32,000 nt of DNA, from contig CP178758.1 in the NCBI GenBank assembly GCA_047651235.1, forward strand, positions 1,530,001 through 1,562,000, written 5' to 3'. The notes under the pieces are model-generated. The model ran no database searches and was not told where the DNA came from. It saw only the letters and a program-made list of their open reading frames with translations. Both the position numbers and the translations under genes were made by a program. Each line of letters opens with the position of its first letter. Position 1 is the first letter of the stretch. Positions 4,203-16,752 of the stretch are shown here, in pieces. This stretch comes from Candidatus Electrothrix yaqonensis (GTDB taxonomy: Bacteria > Desulfobacterota > Desulfobulbia > Desulfobulbales > Desulfobulbaceae).

Positions 4203-4222
4203 ATTTTGTCGTTCAGCTGTTA

Positions 4223-5400
4223 CTTCTACTTTGGCACTCACAAAGGCTGTGGTAATAATTTGCAATTCCGTTGTTTCTCATATGCGAAATCAATCGAAGC
4301 TTGCCTCTTTTCATGCCGTTGACAAAGCTGTCTTATAACTTCATCTTCGTTTACATCTCGACGTGGAAAATTGACTTGAGTAATGTTGTTATATCAGCGC
4401 AACTCAATAACGGGACACCGACTTGATGGTATAATCGTTGCTCGACCATAAACAACATGGCCATCATGACCATAGTCATATGATGATGCCAAGCCAGCCA
4501 TCCCCGAGCCTGATAATCACCCATTCCACATTCATTTTTTGCATCCTGAAATGGCCGTTCAACCCAATATCGTTGAGCTTGCATATATGCAAGTCGTCTT
4601 GTTGACGTGTTACTTTCCGCATTACTTAGGCTATATTTAATTTTTTTCGGGGACTTAACCTCACGTCTGACAACTAATTCTACTTTGGTGACCATACCAT
4701 TAACTATTTAATAATATTAATAATACTAAAAACAGGGGTTTTTAAATACTTAATAAAAATAAGCTAGTTATGTTTATGATCGCCAAAGTAGAACTACTTG
4801 ACAGTTGTCGGTTTTACCAAGCTGCCCGCACCATTGACGAGAAACCCCAACAGACATTTTACCCTTTTTGGGTATCCCGGATTCATCAATTAAAAGAGCA
4901 CTGTTTTTCCTCCCTCCTAAAAGTTTATCTGCATCTTTAGCTACTTGGTTGTTTACAGGACGCCAATCCCAGTTCGATTCGGAAAGAAAATACTGGAGGG
5001 GCTCATATTTAACGCCCGGAACCTTTTCCTCCATACGTTCCATGTTTTTTTGTCAGACTGGAATAAACCTTTCAAGTATTGGAATGCTTTATCTGACAAA
5101 CTTACTGTATGTCTCTTAAAAAAGAGATGATATCTTTCATGAAATGACGCAAGTTGTGGGGCGATGCCGGTCAACTCAAAGAATTTGTCATGGGGACTTC
5201 TTTTTTCGGGGCTGGGAGCGTTCATAAAAAGAATAAAGTTATAATCAGGGCGATTGACGGGTATTTTTTTGATAGCTGTTATCAGGTGCTATCTTGATCA
5301 AAAAGCGATAAAATTTTCCTAATGAAAGATACAACTTTATCCGGATATTGCAAGAAGTTTTTACAAATAGATCAAAAGGTTATGGTTGACAAAGTAGAAG
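4223..5400 (-). mobile_element. IS701-family element copy B: both ends present, catalytic middle replaced by a 116-bp AT-rich insert
   Basis: The ends are CTTCTACTTTGGCAC (4223-) and GACAAAGTAGAAG (-5400). N-terminal transposase fragment at 4797-5225. C-terminal fragment at 4351-4677 with YWVERPFQDAKNECGMGDYQARGWLAWHHH (Y-x2-R-x3-E region). Confidence 0.8.
4678..4793. mobile_element. 116-bp AT-rich MITE-like insert carrying the same termini as the IS701-like element
   Basis: It starts TTCTACTTTGGTG (4678-4690) and ends CGCCAAAGTAGAA (4781-4793). These are inverted repeats of each other and match the IS termini. The interior is non-coding and very AT-rich. Confidence 0.6.
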
Positions 5401-5441
5401 TGAGACATTCACTGAGAAGCCGCTTCAACTTGTTGTAAAGT

Positions 5442-5469
5442 TGTCGGAACACCTACCCTATGAAGAGGG
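5442..5469 (+). repeat. Hairpin repeat copy R1 (3' tail diverged)
   Basis: TGTCGGAACACCTACCCTATGAAGAGGG. It shares the GTCGGAACACC leader and the TACCCT-ATGAAG-AGGG stem-loop with R2-R4. Confidence 0.75.
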
Positions 5470-5526
5470 GGGAAGACAAAGAGGCGGTCCTTGTGATCAC
5501 CTTTTTTTTCTCGTTACTCTCCAGAG

Positions 5527-5556
5527 TTGCAAGTATCACCCAATATCAGCTACAAT
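5527..5556 (+). promoter_or_regulatory. Candidate sigma70-type promoter for the vapBC-1 cassette
   Basis: TTGCAA (5527-5532), an 18-nt spacer, then TACAAT (5551-5556), about 60 nt upstream of the antitoxin ATG at 5618. Confidence 0.4.
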
Positions 5557-5617
5557 AGTTTGTAGAGATCATACCCTTCACGCAACGAAATTACGCAGAC
5601 ACGAGGAAATAAACATT

Positions 5618-5884
5618 ATGGACGCAGTACTTGAACAGCTTCTTGAGGATGCTGGTGGTCTCCCGAAGGAAATGCAAAAAGAGGCACTAAACTTTGTGCG
5701 TTTTCTGAAAAGCAGGTTACCCACTCAGCAGTCTCGGGCAAAAGAACAGAAACCCAATGGTGAAAAATTGATCCGTTTGCTCCAGGAAGCCTCAGGAAAA
5801 AAATTATTCTCTCATATTCAGGATCCGGCTGCCTGGCAGCGGGATCTGCGCTGCGACAGATCTCTTCCGGGGAGAGAAGCCTGA
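5618..5884 (+). CDS. DUF2281-type antitoxin (VapB-like partner of the downstream PIN toxin)
   Basis: The internal Met at 5618 has a GAGGAA RBS 8 nt upstream. Contains LPKEMQKEALNFVRFLKSR and the C-terminal WQRDLRCDRSLPGRE signature. The stop overlaps the vapC ATG. The longer listed ORF (from 5441, TTG) starts inside repeat R1 and is not credible. Confidence 0.7.
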   Translation: MDAVLEQLLEDAGGLPKEMQKEALNFVRFLKSRLPTQQSRAKEQKPNGEKLIRLLQEASGKKLFSHIQDPAAWQRDLRCDRSLPGREA

Positions 5885-6243
5885 TGCTTCTTGATAGCAA
5901 TATTATTATTTACTCCTTTCTTCCTGAATTTCAAATTCTTCAGGAAATCTTGAGGAACAGCGAGGTTTCCTGTTCCGTCATCAGCTGTGTGGAAACTCTG
6001 GGGTATCACGCACTGTCAGAAGATGAACAACATTACTTGCAATTGTTCTTTGAGACGATTGCAGTATTACCGATAACGCAGTCTGTTATCGACACAGCCA
6101 TTGTATTGCGCCAACAGAGAAAAATGTCGTTGGGGGATGCTCTGGTCGCGGCTACGGCCCTTGAGCACCATCAGACTCTTGCGACACGAAATGTTAAAGA
6201 TTTTGAATGGGTGGAGGGGCTGAAGGTGATTAATCCTCTCTGA
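5884..6243 (+). CDS. vapC: PIN-domain toxin VapC
   Basis: 119 aa. It has the MLLDSNIIIY N-terminal acidic motif and a C-terminal LGDALVAATA...LATRNVKDF. It is translationally coupled to the upstream antitoxin. Confidence 0.85.
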   Translation: MLLDSNIIIYSFLPEFQILQEILRNSEVSCSVISCVETLGYHALSEDEQHYLQLFFETIAVLPITQSVIDTAIVLRQQRKMSLGDALVAATALEHHQTLATRNVKDFEWVEGLKVINPL

Positions 6244-6280
6244 CAACTGCCTATCCTATGAAGAGGGTATTAAGATGTAG
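6241..6280 (+). repeat. Hairpin repeat copy R2
   Basis: TGACAACTGCCTATCCTATGAAGAGGGTATTAAGATGTAG. It begins with the vapC stop codon. The stem TATCCT/AGGGTA carries one C-to-T change that still pairs as G-U in sense RNA. Confidence 0.8.
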
Positions 6281-6307
6281 GGGCGACCGGTCGGTCGCCC
6301 TTTTTTT
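6281..6307 (+). terminator. Rho-independent terminator after vapBC-1 and R2
   Basis: GGGCGACC-GGTC-GGTCGCCC stem-loop followed by T7 (6301-6307). Confidence 0.8.
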
Positions 6308-6388
6308 GTGCCCCCGAAAAACATCAGTCAAACACAAGAACAAGGAAATGCTCTGTACGCCTGTCATGGAATGAGATATAATTGATCC

Positions 6389-6682
6389 ATGATACAGTCG
6401 TTCAAAAACGCGGGTACAGAAGATATTTTTGACGGCTCAGCATCCCGAGCTGCAAGAAAATGCTGTCCGAAGTCCATTTGGCCTGTGGCCCGTCGAAAGC
6501 TGGATCAAATTAACCGAATCAGAGAAATCGGTGAACTCAGGATTCCTCCTGGAAACCGCCTGGAACGCCTCAGAGGTGACCGGGATGATCAATACAGCAT
6601 ACGAATTAATCAGCAGTATCGAATCTGCTTTCAATGGGAGAACAGCCATGCATGCGAAGTCGAAATCACTGACTACCACTGA
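6389..6682 (+). CDS. higB: HigB-family toxin (RelE/ParE superfamily, plasmid-maintenance killer protein)
   Basis: 97 aa with RKLDQINRIREIGELRIPPGNRLERLRGDRDDQYSIRINQQYRICFQWE...VEITDYH, a near-consensus HigB (PF05015) signature. Confidence 0.9.
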   Translation: MIQSFKNAGTEDIFDGSASRAARKCCPKSIWPVARRKLDQINRIREIGELRIPPGNRLERLRGDRDDQYSIRINQQYRICFQWENSHACEVEITDYH

Positions 6683-7011
6683 AAGACCAGCTGGTCGGCG
6701 CCTGCCCCGGCAACGCCCTCCGACGCATCCCGGCGAGATGCTTGCCGAGGAGTTTGTCAAACCCCTGGGTATAACAAGAAAAGAACTTGCTCGACGTTTA
6801 GATGTTTCATACTCTTCTCTTATTGATATCGCTCAAGGAGCGACGCTCAATAACTCCATACACCGCCCTTCGGCTATCTCAGGTGCTCGGTATGTCAGCG
6901 GACTTCTGGTTGGGGCTCCAGCAGGATTGGGATCTTTGGCACGCCATGAACAGCCCTGAAGCAAAAAAGATTTCCCGTTTAAAACCCATTGCAACGCTTG
7001 CGAATAAATAA
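6648..7011 (+). pseudogene. higA: HigA-family HTH antitoxin, apparently frameshifted within the HTH (about 6825-6845)
   Basis: The N-terminal part sits in the frame of ORF 6429-6959 (PTHPGEMLAEEFVKPLGITRKELARRLDVSYSSLIDIAQG). The C-terminal part sits in the frame of ORF 6802-7011 (RRSITPYTALRLSQVLGMSADFWLGLQQDWDLWHA). The total of 364 nt is not a multiple of 3. Confidence 0.7.
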
Positions 7012-7012
7012 T

Positions 7013-7088
7013 CCACCCCCAAAGGGGGTGGTATTGGGTTTACCCCTAAAAGGGGATAAGGATGCCTCTTGCCCCCAGAGGGGGCGAG
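7013..7088. repeat. Three tandem C-run / 3-nt loop / G-run hairpins
   Basis: CCACCCCC-AAA-GGGGGTGG (7013-7031), CCCCT-AAA-AGGGG (7043-7055) and CTTGCCCCC-AGA-GGGGGCGAG (7068-7088, one G-U). Confidence 0.7.
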
Positions 7089-7107
7089 GTGTTGTCCCCG
7101 ATTTAAA

Positions 7108-7200
7108 TTAGAATAACCGTAGTTGGTTACGTTCGGCTTGGCGTTCTTTTTCTTCCTGATACTTTACGTAGCGACGTATTTTCTCAGCGCCTAAACCTAC
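7108..7200 (-). pseudogene. C-terminal remnant of an IS200/IS605-type (Y1) TnpA or RAYT-like transposase, truncated by the MITE at 7203
   Basis: The minus-strand translation VGLGAEKIRRYVKYQEEKERQAERNQLRLF* resembles the conserved TnpA C-terminus (STVG..e.vr.YI..QE.ed...dql.l). There are only 30 codons, so the assignment is tentative. Confidence 0.45.
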
Positions 7201-7202
7201 AG

Positions 7203-7309
7203 TATAGCTGGAGCAGTATAAACTGAATACAGGATCAGCTATCTGAAAGGCGTGAAGGCAAAACTTATGCCTCTTGTGGGCATATTCAAATTATGTTGCT
7301 CCAGCTATA
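7203..7309 (+). mobile_element. 107-bp IS630-type MITE (copy 2)
   Basis: Same sequence as 8026-8132 and the reverse complement of 215-321, with TIRs TATAGCTGGAGCA and TGCTCCAGCTATA. Confidence 0.8.
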
Positions 7310-7322
7310 TCCAAGGCTCTGA

Positions 7323-8025
7323 TATAGCTGAAGCAGAATAAAATGAGTATTATATCGGCATGACATATTCAATAGATTTTCGCCGTAAAATTTTGGAAGT
7401 CAAAGAGCGGGACGGTCTGAGTTTCGAAAAAACCGCAGCCCGTTTCGGAGTCGGTAAATCCAGCGTGAGCCGATGGACGAAACGTGTCGAACCCTGCCGG
7501 AGCCGAAATAAACCGGCAACAAATATTGACATGGAACTGCTCGCCCGTGATGTTGAACTGTATCCCGATGCGTATCAGTATGAACGGTCGGAACGGTTCG
7601 GATGCAGCCAGCGCGGTATAGGGGAAGCTCTGAAACGCCTGAAAATCAGCCGTAAAAAAAACTCTTTCGCATCCGAAGGCGGATGAAAAGAAACGCTCTG
7701 TCTTTGTCGATAAAATCAGCACATATGAGGAATCCGGTTTTCCTCTGATTTATATTGATGAAAGCGGCTTCGCTCATGATATGCCGCGCACCTGCGGATA
7801 TGCGCCCGTAGGTGAACGATGCTCCGGTATTCATAATTGGCGGGAGAAGGGCCGTATCAATGCTGTCGGCGCACTGTCCGGGAAAAATCTGCTGACGGTG
7901 ACTCTGTTCGACGGGACCGTCAATTCCGATGTGTTTTATGCATGGATCAGGCAGGATTTATTACCGAAACTGCCTGAACGCAGTGTGGTTGTCATGGACA
8001 ACGCCTCTTTTCATAAACGTCGGGA
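7323..8025 (+). mobile_element. IS630-family element, left IR and about 60% of the transposase gene, truncated by MITE copy 3
   Basis: The left IR TATAGCTGAAGCAG at 7323 closely resembles the MITE TIR. The transposase sequence stops abruptly at NASFHKRRD, before the usual PPYSPDLNPIE region carrying the third catalytic residue. Confidence 0.8.
7360..8025 (+). pseudogene. IS630-family transposase (HTH N-terminus plus partial DDE domain), two frames joined at an A8 run, 3'-truncated
   Basis: Frame 1 (7360-7686) has the HTH region GLSFEKTAARFGVGKSSVSRW. The next frame continues TLSHPKADEKKRSVFVDKI...LIYIDESGFAHDMPRTCGYAPVGERC...SVVVMDNASFHK. The frames meet at A8 (7654-7661). Confidence 0.8.
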
Positions 8026-8132
8026 TATAGCTGGAGCAGTATAAACTGAATACAGGATCAGCTATCTGAAAGGCGTGAAGGCAAAACTTATGCCTCTTGT
8101 GGGCATATTCAAATTATGTTGCTCCAGCTATA
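8026..8132 (+). mobile_element. 107-bp IS630-type MITE (copy 3)
   Basis: Identical motif and TIRs. It interrupts the IS630 transposase on its left and abuts the IS701 3' end on its right. Confidence 0.8.
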
Positions 8133-8242
8133 AGACAGCTTTGTAAACGGCATGAAAAGAGGCAAGCTTCGATTGATTTCGCATATGAGAAACAACGGAA
8201 TTGCAAATTATTACCACAGCCTTTGTGAGTGCCAAAGTAGAA
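8133..8242 (+). mobile_element. IS701-family element, terminal 110 bp of the right end (remnant)
   Basis: It matches 16435-16543 of copy C (AGACAGCTT.GT.AACGGCATGAAAAGAGGCAAGCTTCGATTGATTTCGCATATGAG...GTGCCAAAGTAGAA). Confidence 0.8.
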
Positions 8243-8277
8243 TTAATACCCTCTTCATAGGGTAGGTGTTCCAACTG
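8243..8277 (-). repeat. Hairpin repeat copy R3 (3' tail cut by the IS701 end)
   Basis: The sense (minus-strand) sequence is CAGTTGGAACACCTACCCTATGAAGAGGGTATTAA. It starts immediately after the brnA stop codon (8278-8280). Confidence 0.8.
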
Positions 8278-8544
8278 TTAAGATGCCTTTGCCGCCGGGG
8301 AGGAAATTTTAGGCATATTTTGAATGAGCGCACGCAGGACAGCCTTTACGTCCTCGGCAGAAGAAAAGACTTGAGCCACATCCGAGTCAAGCACAACCAC
8401 CACGTTATCCTCGGTAACCCGTTCGGCAAACCGATTGGGGCGTGCCTTGCTGTAATCGAATCTGTACTCAGGTTGCAAGTCATCATGGCTTGAATGATCA
8501 GCTTTTTTCTTCATAATCCCTCTGCTCATGTTTCGTGGCTGCAC
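8278..8544 (-). CDS. brnA: BrnA-like antitoxin (start may be an internal Met, e.g. 8514)
   Basis: Contains PEYRFDYSKARPNRFAERV followed by VVVVLDSDVAQVF...VLRALI, typical of the antitoxins paired with DUF497/BrnT toxins. Confidence 0.65.
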   Translation of the reverse strand: MQPRNMSRGIMKKKADHSSHDDLQPEYRFDYSKARPNRFAERVTEDNVVVVLDSDVAQVFSSAEDVKAVLRALIQNMPKISSPAAKAS

Positions 8545-8770
8545 GCGAACTAATTATTCGAATAACGTCTTGTAACCGCTCAGTATAGCTTACCAGTAGT
8601 AGCCGCCTTTTTACAGATGCAGTGGCTTTCCGGCCTGAAAATATACGAATTATCGCCGTTTCCACGTCAATATGTTTTGCAACAGCAGGAAACTTGCTAC
8701 GACTGTATTTTCTGTAGAAAGGTCTCCGGTGTATGAACTTCCAACCCTGACTCCAATAAATCTTTTTCAT
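8498..8770 (-). CDS. brnT: BrnT-like (DUF497) toxin
   Basis: RRLLLVSYTERLQDVIRIISSRAATKHEQRDY matches the BrnT C-terminal signature, and FYRKYSRSKFPAVAKH aligns with FEWD..K...N..KH. The only plausible Met (8770) lies inside the 3' end of the upstream PIN gene, so the start is uncertain. Confidence 0.6.
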   Translation of the reverse strand: MKKIYWSQGWKFIHRRPFYRKYSRSKFPAVAKHIDVETAIIRIFSGRKATASVKRRLLLVSYTERLQDVIRIISSRAATKHEQRDYEEKS

Positions 8771-9110
8771 TTCTTGTGATAATGATTGAGATATTCTTCT
8801 GTTGAGCGGAATAGGCCTGCACTGCATCTTCAAAGTCCGACATATCAGATTGTAGCGCCCTCATAATCACCTCTTTATCCACCGATGCAACGTCAAAAAA
8901 ACAGAGCAGATCGTCGATAAATGACAATGCGGTCTCTCTTCCTTTTGCCTTACTGGTGATATAATACAAATCTGTAATTGTCGTGGCCGTCATGACCAAT
9001 TGGATTGAATGCTGCTGAGCTTCTTTAAAGAATCTTACGGCGTGTTCGACAAATGGTTCTCTGTTCAAGGCGATATCAAGAATCACATTTGTATCAACCA
9101 GAACCTTCAC
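8697..9110 (-). CDS. vapC: PIN-domain toxin VapC (second copy, unrelated in sequence to the first)
   Basis: A GTG start at 9110 overlaps the antitoxin stop (GTGA). Contains VLVDTNVILD, then DFEDAVQAYSA, then IITRNEKD, the PIN acidic residues. Confidence 0.8.
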   Translation of the reverse strand: MKVLVDTNVILDIALNREPFVEHAVRFFKEAQQHSIQLVMTATTITDLYYITSKAKGRETALSFIDDLLCFFDVASVDKEVIMRALQSDMSDFEDAVQAYSAQQKNISIIITRNEKDLLESGLEVHTPETFLQKIQS

Positions 9111-9337
9111 TTGTATTTTTCCTTTAAATATTGAAGCTTCAAATCGTCTGAGACGGTTCCCCGTAAAAAACCTGTCCACTTTTCCAGGAATTGCTCCATA
9201 CTTCGCTCCTGACTGGTGTTCTCTGCCTGCTTGATGACAACAAAAACCTCAACCTGCCTTTCGGCATATTGAGAAATTTCAGGGAGTTTAATCACTCCAT
9301 TTCTCAATACCGTAGTTTTAAACTTATACGCTTCCAT
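9107..9337 (-). CDS. Small antitoxin, AF2212/DUF104-like partner of the PIN toxin
   Basis: 76 aa. VLRNGVIKLPEISQYAERQVEVFVV resembles the GV.KPLE...LPEG..V.V pattern of DUF104 antitoxins. It is translationally coupled to vapC. Confidence 0.6.
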   Translation of the reverse strand: MEAYKFKTTVLRNGVIKLPEISQYAERQVEVFVVIKQAENTSQERSMEQFLEKWTGFLRGTVSDDLKLQYLKEKYK

Positions 9338-9491
9338 TTTTTCTATCCTTTTCCTGTTGAGCAGAGAAACTCTGCACAGATAACTGCTTGCAGTGAATTA
9401 TCGAAGCTGACAGAAATATTGTACCCGATTTCAGCTGGGGGTGTTCGTTCTGTCTCGGTGGAAACATCAAGGGCAGACACATGGGGCTGCT

Positions 9492-9532
9492 CTACATTAA
9501 AATACCCTCTTCATAGGGTAGGTGCTACGACA
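9492..9532 (-). repeat. Hairpin repeat copy R4
   Basis: The sense (minus-strand) sequence is TGTCGTAGCACCTACCCTATGAAGAGGGTATTTTAATGTAG. It lies 64 nt downstream of the cas6 stop and upstream of the vapBC-2 cassette. Confidence 0.8.
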
Positions 9533-9596
9533 GCGGCCTTGATTTAAACAATAATGGATTCAGCAAATTAAGCAAGTAAAATTTTACCATACAAGC

Positions 9597-10541
9597 TCAC
9601 CGGCACAGCACCTGATACCGCCCAAACCCCTTACTGGCTTGCTTGCCGATATGGAGCCACTGACCAAGCAAGAGAAAAGGCCAGAACAGCTCCGGCTCTG
9701 CAGGCGCAAAATCTACCGTCCCCAGAAATCCCCTGAACTCGACCACCTTGCCCTGTCGCGCTGACCAGCAGGTGGTCTTGTGCGAACGCAGATCAATACT
9801 GATAAGCTCGGATTGCGTAGCACATTCCTTGAGTGCCCGGAAGTCGGCCTCCAGGGGACAACCCATATAAAAATACTGGAGCAGGGAAATGCGCCGAATC
9901 ACCGCCATGATCAGGCGGCTGATCTCAAGCCTTTCCGGGCGAAAGGACTTGTCCGAGGGCAGGTAGGGGGTGAGGAACTGGATGCGCACAGCAGCGGGTG
10001 CAGGCGGCATCGGGATTGGTTCCATCATACTGTCCCGAACCTCCCCCTGCTGCTCCCAAATCAGCCGTTGACCATTGGGCAGCACCTGACTGACCTGAAC
10101 CAGTTCAGCCTTTGCCCTGTCCGATCCAAAGCCCAGCTGCCCTGATTTTGCCATGGCCCGAACCACCGCAGGCAAGCGTTTGCAGGCCGCCCCGGCCAGC
10201 ACCAGCCCGTGGCTGAATTGCCCACCCGGCGAAATATTCGCCTCACCGCATTGCTCACTGTGAAAGATATGGGGCAACGGCACGGTGCCCACCTTGCGCA
10301 TCATCCTGGCTTCTGGCGGCCTGGGGCCTTTGATGAAAAAGGCGAAATCGCATTGATGACAAAGCATGCAGTCGCTACAATCGGCATTCGGGGCGATGCA
10401 GCTCTGCTGATGCAAGGCCAGCCCGAACACACTGCGGCGGAGCGGATCGGAAAATTCCGGCAGGGTCAGGGAGTCACTGGCTGTAAAGGTGAAGCGGTAT
10501 TGGGCGATAATGAGGTTTGGAGCACACCGTACCCCGCTCAT
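9597..10541 (-). CDS. cas6: Cas6-family RAMP endoribonuclease (PF10040/DUF2276-like), solitary
   Basis: 314 aa. Has an N-terminal Cys cluster C-x6-C-x2-C-x2-C-x2-C (CIAPNADCSDCMLCHQC), an internal FLTPY...RRISLL segment, and the C-terminal glycine-rich loop WLHIGKQASKGFGRYQV, characteristic of this Cas6 family. Confidence 0.7.
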   Translation of the reverse strand: MSGVRCAPNLIIAQYRFTFTASDSLTLPEFSDPLRRSVFGLALHQQSCIAPNADCSDCMLCHQCDFAFFIKGPRPPEARMMRKVGTVPLPHIFHSEQCGEANISPGGQFSHGLVLAGAACKRLPAVVRAMAKSGQLGFGSDRAKAELVQVSQVLPNGQRLIWEQQGEVRDSMMEPIPMPPAPAAVRIQFLTPYLPSDKSFRPERLEISRLIMAVIRRISLLQYFYMGCPLEADFRALKECATQSELISIDLRSHKTTCWSARQGKVVEFRGFLGTVDFAPAEPELFWPFLLLGQWLHIGKQASKGFGRYQVLCR

Positions 10542-10843
10542 GCTCTGTCTCTTGTCAGGTTCATGATTTCGTCGGTGCTCATTTTTACCGTTGCTCTGCC
10601 GCGCAGCATGTCAAATTTGACACTCGGCTTGTATGTCTTGCATTTTAATGAGTTATTTTTGTTTTTCAGGGCAGGCAGATCCATGCCTTCGTTTTTATAT
10701 ATCTCAATCCACTCATCGACGATTCCGCAGAGTTCACGAAAAACTTCCTCTTCCTTTTCTCCGTGACAGCAGCGACCTATCCAGCCGGAAACCGAGCCAA
10801 TATAGCATTGATCTTCTTCCGACCACTCAACAAGCTTTATATA
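10538..10843 (-). pseudogene. HicB-like antitoxin-domain ORF lacking its own start, separated from upstream sequence by the IS5-family insertion
   Basis: The minus-frame translation is YIKLVEWSEEDQCYIGSVSGWIGRCCHGEKEEEVFRELCGIVDEWIEIYKNEGMDLPALK, the HicB_lk_antitox pattern (EWSEED.CY...PGC.AHG.T.EEA...W.E...). The stop TGA overlaps the cas6 ATG (ATGA, 10538-10541). There is no in-frame ATG/GTG/TTG before residue 54. Confidence 0.6.
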
Positions 10844-10845
10844 TC

Positions 10846-11878
10846 AGACCTCCTGCAAAACTTGGTGATTTGACAGAAACGGCGGATGCTGATATTTTTT
10901 CGGTCACTTTTTCGATTATCAACCCCGGAGGTCTGAAAATCATGCTCACATTCGAAAAACTCTCCCGCCGCCCTGAAACATTCCGCCGTCTGACCGGTGT
11001 CGATATTGATCTTTTCAACGGAATGACGGAAAAGATCCGCCCTTTATGGGAAGAGCGGAGAGATAATTTTGAAAAGGGCGGGAGAAAGCACAACTTGGAA
11101 GGAGCTGAAAACCACCTTCTCGCCATGCTCCTGCGAAGTCTTCGCTTATCTATTACCGTTGTTACGTGACATATGAGTTCCTCAGTTTTTTCTTCGATTC
11201 CGATGAGACGACGGTGATGCGCGCAGTGAAACGGATGGAAAAAATCGCGGTACGGGTGATTCATATTGAAAAAAAGCGTGAAATCACACGGGAAGATGCG
11301 GAATACCTGATAATCGATGCGACGGAACAGCCGGTTCAGCGCCTGAAGAAAGGACAGAAGAAGTATTACAGCGGAAAGAAGGGAAAACACACGCTCGGAA
11401 CGCAGTTTACCGCCGGTCCCGACGGACGGATTTTTTCGGTTTCGGCGTCGTATCCCGGAAGTGTTCATGATTTCAGGATATATAAGGAACAGAAGGGGCG
11501 GGAGCGTTTTCACGGTATTCCGAAGAAGGCCGACAGCGGATATCAGGGAATCGCGGCATATGACCGGCGCGCCGAAATTCCCTTTAAAAAGCCCCGGAAC
11601 GGTGAACTGACCGCCGAACAGAAGGCATATAATCTTGATTTATCGAAAAAACGTATCAAAGTTGAGCATGTCATAAGAGAGGTGAAGGTATTTAAAATCA
11701 TGTCGGAAACATACCGGAACAGGCTTAAAGGCCATAATATAAAGAAAAATATCATATCCGGCATAGTGAATATGAAGGTTGCGGCACGGAAAATGAAGAA
11801 AGCTGCCTGAAGCGGAAAATTTTGAAAAAGGGAAAAACCTCACCGCCTGAGAAGAACAGGCAGTTCTGCAGGAGGTCT
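10846..11878 (+). mobile_element. IS5-family (DDE_Tnp_4-type) insertion sequence, about 1.03 kb
   Basis: The terminal inverted repeats are AGACCTCCTGCAAAACT (10846-) and AGTTCTGCAGGAGGTCT (-11878). It encodes a two-ORF transposase. Confidence 0.8.
10942..11810 (+). pseudogene. DDE_Tnp_4-type transposase in two frames (10942-11169 and 11166-11810); a -1 shift is needed near 11135-11150
   Basis: OrfA is MLTFEKLSRRPETFRRLTGVDIDLF...GGRKHNL..ENHLLAMLL. OrfB is YYRCYVTYEFLSFFFDSDETTVMRAVKR...LIIDATEQPVQR...SGKKGKHTL..Q......GRIF.VS.SYPGSVHDF..Y. No obvious slippery heptamer lies at the junction, so the gene may be inactivated. Confidence 0.7.
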
Positions 11879-15175: not shown

Positions 15176-15543
15176 CTCGGCGGGGGTACTTTCCCAAACC
15201 CTATCTTGCCATTTTTGTATAACTATTGTTCTGTCTTTTACCGCTTGCACCGACTTATTGGTTTTGTTCAAACGGTTCAGATTGTGGCTCGCTGCGCTCG
15301 CACAATCTAACCTTATTCGATGGAGTTGTGAAGAATTTTGCGCCTCCGCTGACACCAATTACCGTAGTAATTAATGCCACATAATGCAGAATACGAGTGG
15401 AATGAGCTTGGAAAGTGCGGTGAAAATGCCACGTGACTTATTCAGCCCCTCTCTCTGTTCTTTTAGATCCGTCAGAACAGTTGGAATTCGCTTGGTTCGG
15501 AACTTTATCAATGCGGTTTCCGCATCAGTAAGGTGAAACATAG

Positions 15544-16544
15544 TTCTACTTTGTCAACCATAACCTTTTGATCTATTTGTAAAAACTTCTTGCAATATCC
15601 GGATAAAGTTGTATCTTTCATTAGGAAGATTTTATCGCTTTTTGATCAAGCTAGCACCTGATAACAGCTATCAAAAAAATACCCGTCAATCGCCCTGATT
15701 ATAACTTTATTCTTTTTATGAACGCTCCCAGCCCCGAAAAAAGAAGTCCCCATGACAAATTCTTTGAGTTGACCGGCATCGCCCGGCAACTTACGTCTTT
15801 TCACGAAAGATATCATCATTTTTTTAAGAGACATACGGTAAGTTTGTCAGATAAAGCATTCCAATACTTGAAAGGTTTATTCCAGTCTGACAAAAAAACA
15901 TGGAACGTATGGAGGAAAAGGTTCCGGGCGTTAAATATGAGCCCCTCCAGTATTTTCTTTCCGACTCGAACTGGGATTGGCGTCCTGTAAACAACCAAGT
16001 AGCTAAAGATGCGGATAACATTTTTGGAGGAAAGGAAGATAGCGCTCTTTTTATTGATGAATCCGGGATGCCCAAAAAGGGGAAGATGTCTGTCGGGGTT
16101 TCTCGTCAATGGTGCGGGCAGCTTGGTAAAACCGACAACTGTCAGGTAGCAGTGTTCGCGACTTTGGGATATGGCCGTTTTTCCACGCCAATCGACTATC
16201 GGCTGTATTTACCGAAAAGCTGGACGGATGACAAGGAACGTTGTCTTAAGGCTAAGGCTCGGGGATGGCTGGCTTGGCATCATCATATGACTATGGTCAT
16301 GATGGCCATGTTGTTTATGGTCGAGCAACGATTATACCATCAAGTCGGTGTCCCGTTATTGAGTTGCGCTGATATAACAACATTACTCAAGTCAATTCTT
16401 CCACGTCGAGATGTAAACGAAGATGAAGTTATAAGACAGCTTCGTCAACGGCATGAAAAGAGGCAAGCTTCGATTGATTTCGCATATGAGAAACAACCGA
16501 ATTGCAAATTATTACCACAGCCTTTGTGAGTGCCAAAGTAGAAG
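15544..16544 (+). mobile_element. IS701-family element copy C: both ends present, internal deletion derivative (about 1 kb)
   Basis: The ends are TTCTACTTTGTCAACC (15544-) and GTGCCAAAGTAGAAG (-16544). The 209-aa ORF fuses the N-terminal 116 residues directly to the C-terminal ARGWLAWHHH... segment, so the catalytic core is missing. Confidence 0.85.
15718..16529 (+). pseudogene. IS701-family transposase, internally deleted (frames 15718-15990 and 15900-16529 joined at an A7 run)
   Basis: It has the same N-terminal motifs as copy A, and the A7 run lies at 15892-15898. The deletion junction is at about 16248-16262 (ERCLKAKARGWLAWHHH). Confidence 0.8.
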
Positions 16545-16752
16545 TAACCATCGGCTTCTGTTTGATGCTGATGGTCTTGATCAGCTTGATATAGCTGCGA
16601 GTAATACAAGGGAGAATTGAGGCTCTATCCAAATCGATTGTCCACGCATTGTGCCGAGATCCAAGCTCTGCCTAAAGGCTGTTCGTTCAGCCCTTTGATG
16701 AGCTTCAGAAACTCAGAACGGTGTAACATCAGCTTTTCCCGGAAAAGATGTA

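Follow-up and report, generated by a model that had tools for sequence, protein, structure and literature searches.

The four repeat copies

The window analysed here is a stretch of 32,000 nucleotides from Candidatus Electrothrix yaqonensis (GenBank assembly GCA_047651235.1, contig CP178758.1, positions 1,530,001 to 1,562,000; all coordinates below are those of the window), in which four copies of a hairpin-forming CRISPR repeat (clustered regularly interspaced short palindromic repeat) lie among toxin-antitoxin (TA) genes beside a standalone cas6. A search with the 18-nt core CCTAYCCTATGAAGAGGG gave exactly four exact matches, at 5452(+), 6250(+), 8249(-) and 9505(-), and none in the shuffled window sequence, which confirmed the four-copy observation, made earlier in a first-pass annotation, as real and far beyond chance. 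A covariance model (CM) built from related Electrothrix repeats and then run over the window recovered exactly four units, at 5443-5477(+), 6241-6276(+), 8240-8275(-) and 9496-9531(-), with E-values from 6e-13 to 3e-7, and no fifth copy in the window, the next-best match having E=1.2. The copies are:

5443..5477, plus strand: R1, CRISPR repeat (CM 30 bits, E 2.7e-7)
6241..6276, plus strand: R2, junction CRISPR repeat (CM 42.3 bits)
8247..8275, minus strand: R3, CRISPR repeat with its 3' handle cut by the end of an insertion sequence (IS) (CM 42.7 bits, match 8240-8275)
9496..9531, minus strand: R4, leader-proximal CRISPR repeat (CM 47.1 bits, E 6e-13)

The unit is 36 nt long (GT[CT]G..CACC-TACCCT-ATGAAG-AGGGTA-TTAAGAC) and has the CRISPR-repeat architecture first proposed for it, but the length of ~37-41 nt given at that time was too large, the trailing GTAG being the start of a flanking GC-rich hairpin that resembles a terminator or a repetitive extragenic palindromic (REP) element. 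Likewise R1, given as 5442-5469, reaches 5477, its degenerate 3' stem arm having been overlooked by too early a cut-off, while the G-U substitution described in the stem of R2 is real. The spacings from R1 through R2 and R3 to R4 are 798, 1999 and 1256 bp, all four copies lie inside the cas6/TA island of the 32-kb window and all are in the sense orientation, that of the CRISPR RNA (crRNA). When the window was searched for a tandem repeat array none was found, and no Rfam family match was obtained in the window or in six related loci.

To place these copies in a wider context, the core was searched in one genome per species, resulting in 42 stretches (L001-L042), and a metagenome scan added 22 further loci; comparison loci are cited below by their L numbers.

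Genes of the locus

The repeats bracket co-oriented TA operons beside an orphan cas6, as had been described. The genes, together with a promoter-like site, are:

9597..10541, minus strand: cas6, standalone, intact, 314 aa (PF10040, E 2.7e-11, 44.5 bits against a cutoff of 25)
10541..10843 (10538-10843 in places), minus strand: HicB/UPF0150-like antitoxin remnant, truncated upstream by an IS (weak PF21748, E 0.0019)
9107..9337, minus strand: vapB2-like antitoxin, 76 aa (open reading frame (ORF) 5' of and overlapping the PIN gene; no Pfam match)
8697..9110, minus strand: vapC2 PIN toxin, 137 aa (Logan contig call; PF13470 PIN_3, E 2e-20)
8501..8617, minus strand: brnT toxin remnant, C-terminal ~40 aa only (partial PF04365, E 1.2e-6, below cutoff)
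8278..8514, minus strand: brnA antitoxin, 78 aa (83-91% identical to the BrnA partners of intact Electrothrix BrnT)
5527..5556, plus strand: promoter-like site TTGCAA-18-TACAAT for vapBC1 (motif conserved 5' of vapB1 in L030, L042 and L077)
5618..5884, plus strand: vapB1 antitoxin (weak NF050009; 84-85% identical to the L030 and L042 copies)
5884..6243, plus strand: vapC1 PIN toxin (PF01850, E 2.5e-10; 85% identical to the L030 and L042 copies)
6389..6682, plus strand: higB toxin (PF05015, E 1.5e-17; 96% identical to the L030 copy)
6648..7011, plus strand: higA antitoxin pseudogene, frameshift near 6835 (TIGR02607, E 2.9e-10, N-terminal half only)

Profile matches supported the gene calls of the first-pass annotation (cas6, PIN, HigB, HigA and BrnT). 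The TA genes of the window are type II modules, with PIN, PIN_3, HigB-like, HigA and partial BrnT matches, and two of them, brnT and higA, are degraded; higA is present as two overlapping frames with an intact homologue in L030, and in tblastn the brnT remnant aligned with the 3' portion of the brnT regions of L037 and L033, an intact BrnT of 95 aa being called at the brnT position in L080 (same contig as L037).

By its profile match the product of 9597-10541 is assigned to the PF10040 family of Cas6 endoribonucleases, its activity being predicted. The G-rich loop GKQASKGFGRY is conserved in 10 homologues and all invariant columns are kept; Electrothrix homologues are 79-87% identical to the window Cas6, and a 55%-identical homologue is the first gene of a cas6-Cas_NE0113-cmr1-6 operon (L069). 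A sequence search of the PDB gave no relative of the window Cas6. No other cas gene, including cas1 and cas2, and no integrase was detected among the 40 window ORFs scanned. A standalone cas6 also accompanies such cassettes in L003, L011, L013, L028 and L072.

The stop codon of the HicB-like remnant overlaps the start codon of cas6 (ATGA). In L073, L077 and L081 a fragment of an RVT_1 reverse transcriptase (RT) and an intact HicB are located just 5' of a leader and array, and RT-HicB-(cas6)-leader may be a conserved module.

Identity of the repeat

The core matches outside cable bacteria are single and have nothing in common beyond the searched core, and are taken as chance. The remaining core loci belong to Candidatus Electrothrix and related Desulfobulbaceae, where the core was found both in true arrays and at TA-cassette junctions; this search had been suggested with the first description of the repeat. 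Several Electrothrix genomes use it as the repeat of ordinary arrays, which have a period of 67-73 bp and 2-31 units, with up to 28 units in the one-per-species scan, and are present in E. aarhusensis, E. laxa, E. marina, E. communis and related metagenome-assembled genomes. The family consensus is GT[CT]G[TG]A[GA]CACC-TACCCT-ATGAAG-AGGGTA-TTAAGAC, and what distinguishes the subtypes is confined to the first ~10 nt or to ATTGAGAC replacing ATTAAGAC. Arrays of the family flank a Cmr1/Cmr2/Cmr3/Cmr5/Cmr6 locus in L049, a cmr operon is found next to family arrays in L049, L069 and L080, and in L069 the operon headed by cas6 is followed by a small array whose diverged repeat keeps the hairpin. Since arrays flank the Cmr locus and the Cas6 homologue heads a cmr operon, the repeat family is associated with type III-B. 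The window copies are genuine CRISPR repeats of this cable-bacterium type III-B-associated family; what had been called merely CRISPR-like is the resident CRISPR repeat, its core being identical to that of bona fide Electrothrix arrays.

This identity bears directly on the proposal that the unit is a generic REP element, or one like a miniature inverted-repeat transposable element (MITE), interspersed in the genome and unrelated to CRISPR. The unit is indeed a short hairpin repeat in intergenic DNA, and a separate REP-like GC hairpin (GGGCGACCnnnnGGTCGCCC) is truly dispersed and often abuts the repeats. However, the unit itself is found in regular arrays that have a leader and unique spacers, and only 4-8 loci per Electrothrix genome carry the core, as arrays, leader-bearing mini-arrays or cassette junctions, with the four window copies confined to one cas6/TA island. 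This low copy number together with the array context refutes the proposal, to which hardly any credence can be given.

Some further features were observed in these genomes. They contain many small arrays and leader-plus-one-or-two-repeat units beside housekeeping genes with no cas genes nearby, and the orthologous pair L016/L063 has one repeat in one locus and two in the other. A predicted membrane protein of ~160 aa without Pfam match (L049:9139-9621) adjoins cmr6, its counterpart being a 161-aa ORF next to the standalone cas6 of L028, and its gene is a candidate accessory component of this type III-B system. A viral contig (L046:2049-2066, IMGVR_UViG_3300030108_003946) shares an identical stretch of 22 nt with the repeat (AACACCTACCCTATGAAGAGGG), after which the sequence differs and is able to pair back on that stretch; this match could be due to chance or be a phage repeat mimic.

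R4 as an array without spacers

R4 is located 64 nt 3' of the cas6 stop codon, a distance that holds from the first-pass annotation, and is enclosed by two recognisable elements:

9532..9590, minus strand: CRISPR leader end, 59 nt, ...TTTTACTTGCTTAAT.TGCTGAAT...AAGGCCGCT (matches leaders elsewhere)
9427..9495, minus strand: post-array trailer element (GTAGAGCAGCCCCATGTGTCTGCCCTTGATGTTTCCACCGAGACAG...) (degenerate hairpin, no T-run)

The 59 nt 5' of R4 match leaders standing before the first repeats in L001, L010, L031, L034, L039, L073 and L082, and the trailer is homologous to DNA 3' of terminal or solitary repeats in L002, L013, L028, L053 and L078. Because the upstream side matches a conserved leader and the downstream side an element that follows terminal repeats, R4 is a zero-spacer array, that is a leader and one repeat directly behind cas6. 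Its 3' handle is degenerate (ATTTTAAT). The same units of leader and single repeat occur in L002, L003, L013, L023, L028 and L072, and in L072, another Electrothrix contig, an 85%-identical cas6 has behind it a single degenerate repeat preceded by the remnant of a leader. R1, R2 and R3 are without leader.

Junction repeats and insertion sequences

The surroundings of the three leaderless copies comprise hairpins and several parts of insertion sequences:

6279..6310, plus strand: intrinsic terminator / REP-like hairpin (GGGGCGACCGGTCGGTCGCCC + T7) directly 3' of R2 (10-bp stem and T-run)
5483..5509, plus strand: weaker terminator-like hairpin and T8 after R1 (fold of 5430-5520)
5404..5442, plus strand: putative 'GAC' (missing 3' end of R3) and 36-nt spacer ATTCACTGAGAAGCCGCTTCAACTTGTTGTAAAGTT, beginning exactly at the IS end
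8126..8246, no strand assigned: 121-nt end fragment of a ~1-kb DDE_5 IS, abutting R3 (repeat families, end alignment)
4220..5403, no strand assigned: DDE_5 IS copy, the inverted partner end of which abuts R3 (inverted repeats; DDE_5 match on the full copy 15541-16548)
7203..8132, plus strand: IS630-like element or remnant with 107-nt terminal MITE-like repeats, inside the IS fragment (HTH_Tnp_IS630 and DDE_3 matches)

R2 begins with the vapC1 stop codon, TGA being its bases 1-3, as had been noticed. Its first ten nucleotides are replaced by the end of vapC1, the hairpin is kept with the G-U pair and the handle reads ATTAAGAT; homologous vapC1-repeat junctions are found in L030 and L042. The terminator reported after R2 is present and strong, and members of its hairpin family stand 3' of terminal and of junction repeats at many loci, as well as at other positions. 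In R1 the 3' stem arm is degenerate (GGGG-GGAAGAC), with one deletion and GGG for TATT, and the hairpin after R1 is homologous to GGGCGATCCTTGTGATCGCCC+T terminators in L005, L027, L041, L042 and L064. R3, which had been placed right after the brnA stop codon, starts 2 nt past it and is interrupted after ...GGGTATTAA by the end of the ~1-kb DDE_5 IS.

The inverted IS arms at 4220-4340 and 8126-8246 are 98% identical, and an inversion between them can explain why R1 and R2 are opposite in strand to R3 and R4. When R3 is joined to the GAC that follows the IS end at 5403, a full repeat results, followed by a spacer of normal length (36 nt) and then R1. Most simply, R3 and R1 would thus have been neighbours in a mini-array with a 36-nt spacer, split by IS insertion and inversion. 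We infer an ancestral order on one strand of cas6-leader-R4-[vapBC2, brnT'A]-R3-spacer-R1-[vapBC1]-R2-[higBA']. That the two repeat pairs face opposite ways is then a rearrangement artefact and not a design feature, and the earlier statement that the locus is not a CRISPR array was too strong, the leader of R4 and the repeat-spacer-repeat of R3 and R1 indicating an IS-scrambled array tail. For the 36-nt spacer no protospacer was found in viral contigs and no self-target in the window, where the best match elsewhere is a 10-mer, at chance level.

The mobile elements of the region are nested, with IS630-like elements at 1-331 and 7203-8132 and the DDE_5 IS at 315-1028, 4220-5403, 8126-8246 and 15541-16548, the latter in several full and partial copies and in both orientations, which implies that the region was inverted or recombined more than once. 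A further IS, of DDE_Tnp_4 type, is located at ~10830-11810.

Repeat-bounded cassettes in other loci

In more than 20 other Electrothrix and metagenome loci, arrays are followed by further repeats that lie 0.37-2.5 kb apart and enclose genes. In each of the 23 inter-repeat intervals (0.37-2.5 kb) examined, the genes that can be recognised have the orientation of the repeats; opposite-strand ORFs in these intervals are only unannotated ones overlapping a repeated non-coding element and are taken as spurious. The contents comprise UPF0175/PIN, MNT/HepT, BrnT/BrnA, VapBC and HigBA, YhgA-Rpn nucleases, XisH, Uma2 endonuclease and AAA-ATPase/PD-(D/E)XK proteins. The stop codon of a co-oriented ORF was found -12..+60 nt upstream of 19 of the 25 leaderless solitary repeats, against 14% of random positions (binomial P = 6e-12, or ~1e-6 after collapse of homologous cassettes to 11 types); among the first or solitary repeats that have a leader, the same holds for only 4 of 47.

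The first comparison set was found via the hairpin core itself, which brings an ascertainment bias on hairpin conservation. In a gene-first control, BrnA homologues were therefore collected by protein similarity and their contigs then fetched. A repeat was present 3 nt after the brnA stop codon in all 11 Electrothrix loci with sequence past the gene, and BrnTA homologues outside Electrothrix showed no repeat; in L033 a BrnA cassette stands behind an array without a repeat. Upstream, arrays with three repeat subtypes and leaders are followed by the same module of terminator and brnTA, and the downstream neighbour is of four kinds, namely an Rpn nuclease, vapBC1, a pair of vapB-like and PIN genes, or housekeeping genes.

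Two loci show how the cassettes are arranged. In L077 a long train reads BrnA-R-vapBC1-R'-RT-HicB-leader-array(8)-brnTA-R-Rpn-R-MNT/HepT-R-S-R-Rpn, and the 2-kb contig L030 reads R-S-R-higBA-brnA'-R-vapBC1-R-S-R, so that the cassettes of the window are reordered there between true repeat-spacer-repeat segments. Alignments of homologous cassettes showed that the similarity spans gene and repeat and breaks off no more than ~5 nt before the end of the repeat, and the junctions consist of a CRISPR repeat and a GC-rich hairpin, usually with a T-run. With homology ending at the repeats, cassette order varying and different arrays being involved, the suggestion of a cassette recombination site is supported, and the repeats would constitute boundaries of exchangeable cassettes.

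These data also bear on the possibility that the solitary repeats are passive debris, independent collapsed arrays scattered among TA genes in a defence island with neither exchange nor functional link. Units of the R4 type are clearly collapsed or empty arrays still with a leader, a leader remnant precedes the repeat L006:5658, the window is heavily rearranged by IS, and TA genes and CRISPR loci are known to lie clustered together (PMC4390879; bioRxiv 10.1101/2023.03.03.530964). However, most junction repeats are leaderless and start 0-50 nt after a stop codon, an identical BrnTA-plus-repeat module is found behind three leaders and repeat subtypes and before four neighbours, recognisable genes and repeats are co-oriented without exception in the 23 intervals, and cassette order differs between the window and L030. 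Debris of this kind is accordingly considered improbable as an explanation of the whole pattern.

A different explanation of the trains is dedicated site-specific capture, in which the repeat would be an attC-like recombinase site or the cassettes would be inserted by Cas1-Cas2 or an RT-linked adaptation module. It is suggested by the integron-like trains of co-oriented, TA-rich cassettes of ~1 kb, each ending in a conserved hairpin, by the RVT_1 fragments adjoining several leaders and by the upstream cassette boundary, which is often exactly at the repeat 3' end. The 5' side of the junction repeats is nevertheless ragged and not site-specific-looking, and Cas1-Cas2 measures prespacers of ~30-40 bp, which counts against capture of cassettes by these proteins. 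The integron version was rejected on finding no integrase among the 40 window ORFs (nor cas1 or cas2, as stated above) and, by inspection of the repeat variants at both ends and on both strands, no fit to the attC R'' (RYYYAAC) and R' (GTTRRRY) cores. Taken together, capture by a dedicated enzyme is very unlikely.

Other elements were seen at or near the repeats. The REP-like GC hairpins form a family GGGCGACC-n(2-8)-GGTCGCCC, with or without T-run (window 6281-6300, L005:7542, L013:20, L037:5377 and L038:3576), which abuts most terminal and junction repeats at varying offsets (ATT|GTAGGGG, ATTA|TAGGGG, ATTAAGAC|GTAGGGG) and occurs also away from repeats. After some solitary repeats there is a conserved element of ~330 nt (L002:329-676, L019:5357-5723 and L077:5515-5844), which starts GTAGGGGCAGA...TTTCCACCGAGACAGG..GAACATGCAGAATACTCAG and has on the opposite strand an ORF of 108-116 codons without Pfam match; it gave no Rfam match and is probably a MITE-like non-coding element. 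In the window a degenerate fifth repeat copy was considered after higA (~7040-7075) and rejected by the CM, the region having instead three small hairpins, CCCC(C)-n4-GGGG(G), unrelated to the repeat. These like hairpins (CCACCCCCAAAGGGGGTGG, TACCCCTAAAAGGGGATA and the CCCCC-AGAG-GGGGG-type TTGCCCCCAGAGGGGGCGAGG) are contained in 7013-7099, directly after the higA pseudogene, and stand where other higBA cassettes have a repeat (L053).

Proposed organisation and mechanism

The reading that we favour, and consider reasonably probable, is that the locus is the tail of an array in which repeat-bounded, exchangeable TA cassettes occupy spacer positions, with Cas6 cleavage of their transcripts as an expected consequence. 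Each cassette would be a transcription unit of its own, consisting of promoter, antitoxin, toxin, CRISPR repeat and intrinsic terminator, and the ~60-70 bp of repeat and terminator hairpin, common to cassettes and array ends, would be the site at which cassettes are swapped among the many arrays of the genome. Because no integrase, cas1 or cas2 is present in the window and the 5' sides of the junction repeats are ragged, exchange would most simply take place by homologous recombination within the shared 36-70-bp junction. As DNA between direct repeats is easily deleted, only cassettes lethal on loss would persist, and this may account for the enrichment of TA and nuclease genes, the addictive segments being those that stay.

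Since an intact hairpin with its cleavage position lies between stop codon and terminator, cassette mRNAs would be expected to be cut by Cas6 in the 3' untranslated region (UTR), 8 nt before the repeat end (G|AUUAAGAC). Processing of TA transcripts by Cas6, one of the roles proposed at first, is therefore plausible. Leader-driven read-through of all cassettes was also considered; terminator hairpins follow most junction repeats and array ends, which makes it unlikely except from R4 into vapBC2.

A stronger version holds that the cleavage is selected, the repeat being kept in the TA 3' UTR as a Cas6-dependent guard so that binding or cleavage by Cas6 sets the fate of the TA mRNA. If Cas6 were lost, or were inhibited for instance by phage repeat mimics, toxin and antitoxin would then fall out of balance and dormancy would follow, protecting CRISPR as CreTA does. 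In agreement with such a guard, the hairpin and the Cas6 cleavage position survive even where gene sequence replaces the first ten nucleotides of the repeat, the repeats stand tightly after stop codons and before terminators, their orientation is 100% sense and a standalone cas6 travels with the cassettes in the window and the five loci named above; CRISPR-coupled TA systems offer a precedent (PMC9458426; bioRxiv 10.1101/2024.01.05.574328). On the other hand, decay is visible in several copies (R1, L042:5087 and L006:5658), the 8-nt handle varies at the brnA junctions (AAGAC, AAGGT, CACGT), the L033 cassette does without a repeat, and the conservation statistics are weak and partly ascertainment-biased. 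We regard selection of this kind as rather unlikely.

Several points also weigh against the cassette-bearing array tail itself. Regular repeat-spacer periodicity was not found in the window, where only the reconstructed R3-R1 gives repeat-36 nt-repeat, and that reconstruction rests on a 3-nt match and spacing. An uninterrupted R3-spacer-R1 was sought in relatives via exact-protein look-ups and not found; in the independent Logan data the short contigs of this strain stop precisely at the IS ends in question, and for this reason none was recovered from them. R1 lacks its 3' stem arm and R4 its handle, implying that some copies are decaying and not maintained. The stem does not vary in the gene-first set, but that set comprises only 7 distinct sequences and its support is marginal (~P 0.04), and stem covariation, the check proposed with the first description, gave one compensatory pair, equalled by 121 of 500 shuffles and hence uninformative. 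That recombination would act on 36-70 bp is assumed, and the presence of several copies of one cassette per genome weakens a simple argument from post-segregational killing.

Two further observations on the hairpin were not counted as evidence. That it is more conserved than the 5' part of the repeat was discounted as a sign of selection, the loci having been found with the hairpin core, and the one C-G to U-A change in the hairpin of the diverged L069 repeat concerns arrays and not solitary copies.

Significance

CRISPR arrays are held to be strictly regular, and ectopic repeats are known mainly in small regulatory guides. In the loci described here kilobase-sized TA operons would take the place of spacers, a repeat and a terminator closing each of them, and be exchanged among the many arrays of one lineage. 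In the searchable full-text literature, the coverage of which is incomplete, no description of protein-coding TA operons in spacer positions was found, and only passing mentions of CRISPR in cable bacteria.

If the repeats are only recombination junctions, they would be a new example of how defence islands are built and an integrase-free natural analogue of integron cassette arrays. If cleavage of TA transcripts by Cas6 matters, the CreTA idea would extend to type II TA and type III-B systems, and Cas6 would gain a role in mRNA processing. A more far-reaching idea, speculative and held with low confidence, is that cable-bacterium arrays double as integron-like platforms, where defence and TA operons would be captured, reshuffled and retained between the repeats, and that Cas6 sites in 3' UTRs wire these abortive-infection modules to crRNA processing; were this true, a phage that blocks Cas6 would set off the toxins, and CRISPR repeat and Cas6 would both gain a second, non-guide function.

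Comparison with known systems

Shmakov et al. (bioRxiv 10.1101/2023.03.03.530964) have described CRISPR repeats that stand alone (ectopic repeats) and mini-arrays accompanied by TA cargo in CRISPR-cas loci, mostly of type I, where the spacer between two repeats has the usual length, shows partial complementarity to a promoter and acts as a regulatory crRNA-like guide; no targets were found for type III in the same study. The loci described here resemble these mini-arrays in having repeats outside regular arrays, enriched near TA genes in a variable hotspot of gene shuffling. They differ in that whole protein-coding TA operons are found between the repeats and that the repeat lies in the 3' UTR before a terminator, and the 36-nt spacer of the window, unlike the guides of Shmakov et al. 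and CreA, is without a self-target in the window.

Solitary repeat units of phages, the RNA anti-CRISPRs, are likewise single repeats outside arrays, the RNA of which is bound by Cas6 or other Cas proteins (PMC10651486). Unlike such decoys, the repeats studied here are chromosomal and tied to TA operons and array ends, with only the one doubtful viral match (L046).

In Sulfolobales, vapBC pairs are interspersed in cas gene cassettes and have been proposed to help maintain them, and the repeat-spacer substructure is, according to the same review, almost never irregular (PMC4390879). TA pairs mixed with CRISPR-Cas are thus a common feature, but there they are located among the cas genes and here between CRISPR repeats.

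In CreTA, degenerate repeats couple an RNA toxin-antitoxin to cas genes via Cascade (PMC9458426, PMC8501985). The two systems share degenerate repeats and a TA module by cas genes, and CreTA makes use of Cas6 processing and of an addiction logic that guards CRISPR. CreTA, however, consists of the small RNAs CreT and CreA, with Cascade guided by CreA, while the modules described here are type II protein TA (VapBC, HigBA, BrnTA, MNT/HepT), no guide-target relation was found and the system is of type III-B.

Chromosomal integrons contain co-oriented cassettes of ~1 kb with hairpin-forming ends, among them TA cassettes with their own promoters, and the cassette order varies among relatives. The loci of Electrothrix share the co-oriented ~1-kb cassettes, the hairpin ends, the TA promoters and the variable order. 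They differ in that no intI and no attC R''/R' core was found and normal spacer arrays are interleaved with the cassettes, the cassette boundary being here the CRISPR repeat of the host together with a terminator.

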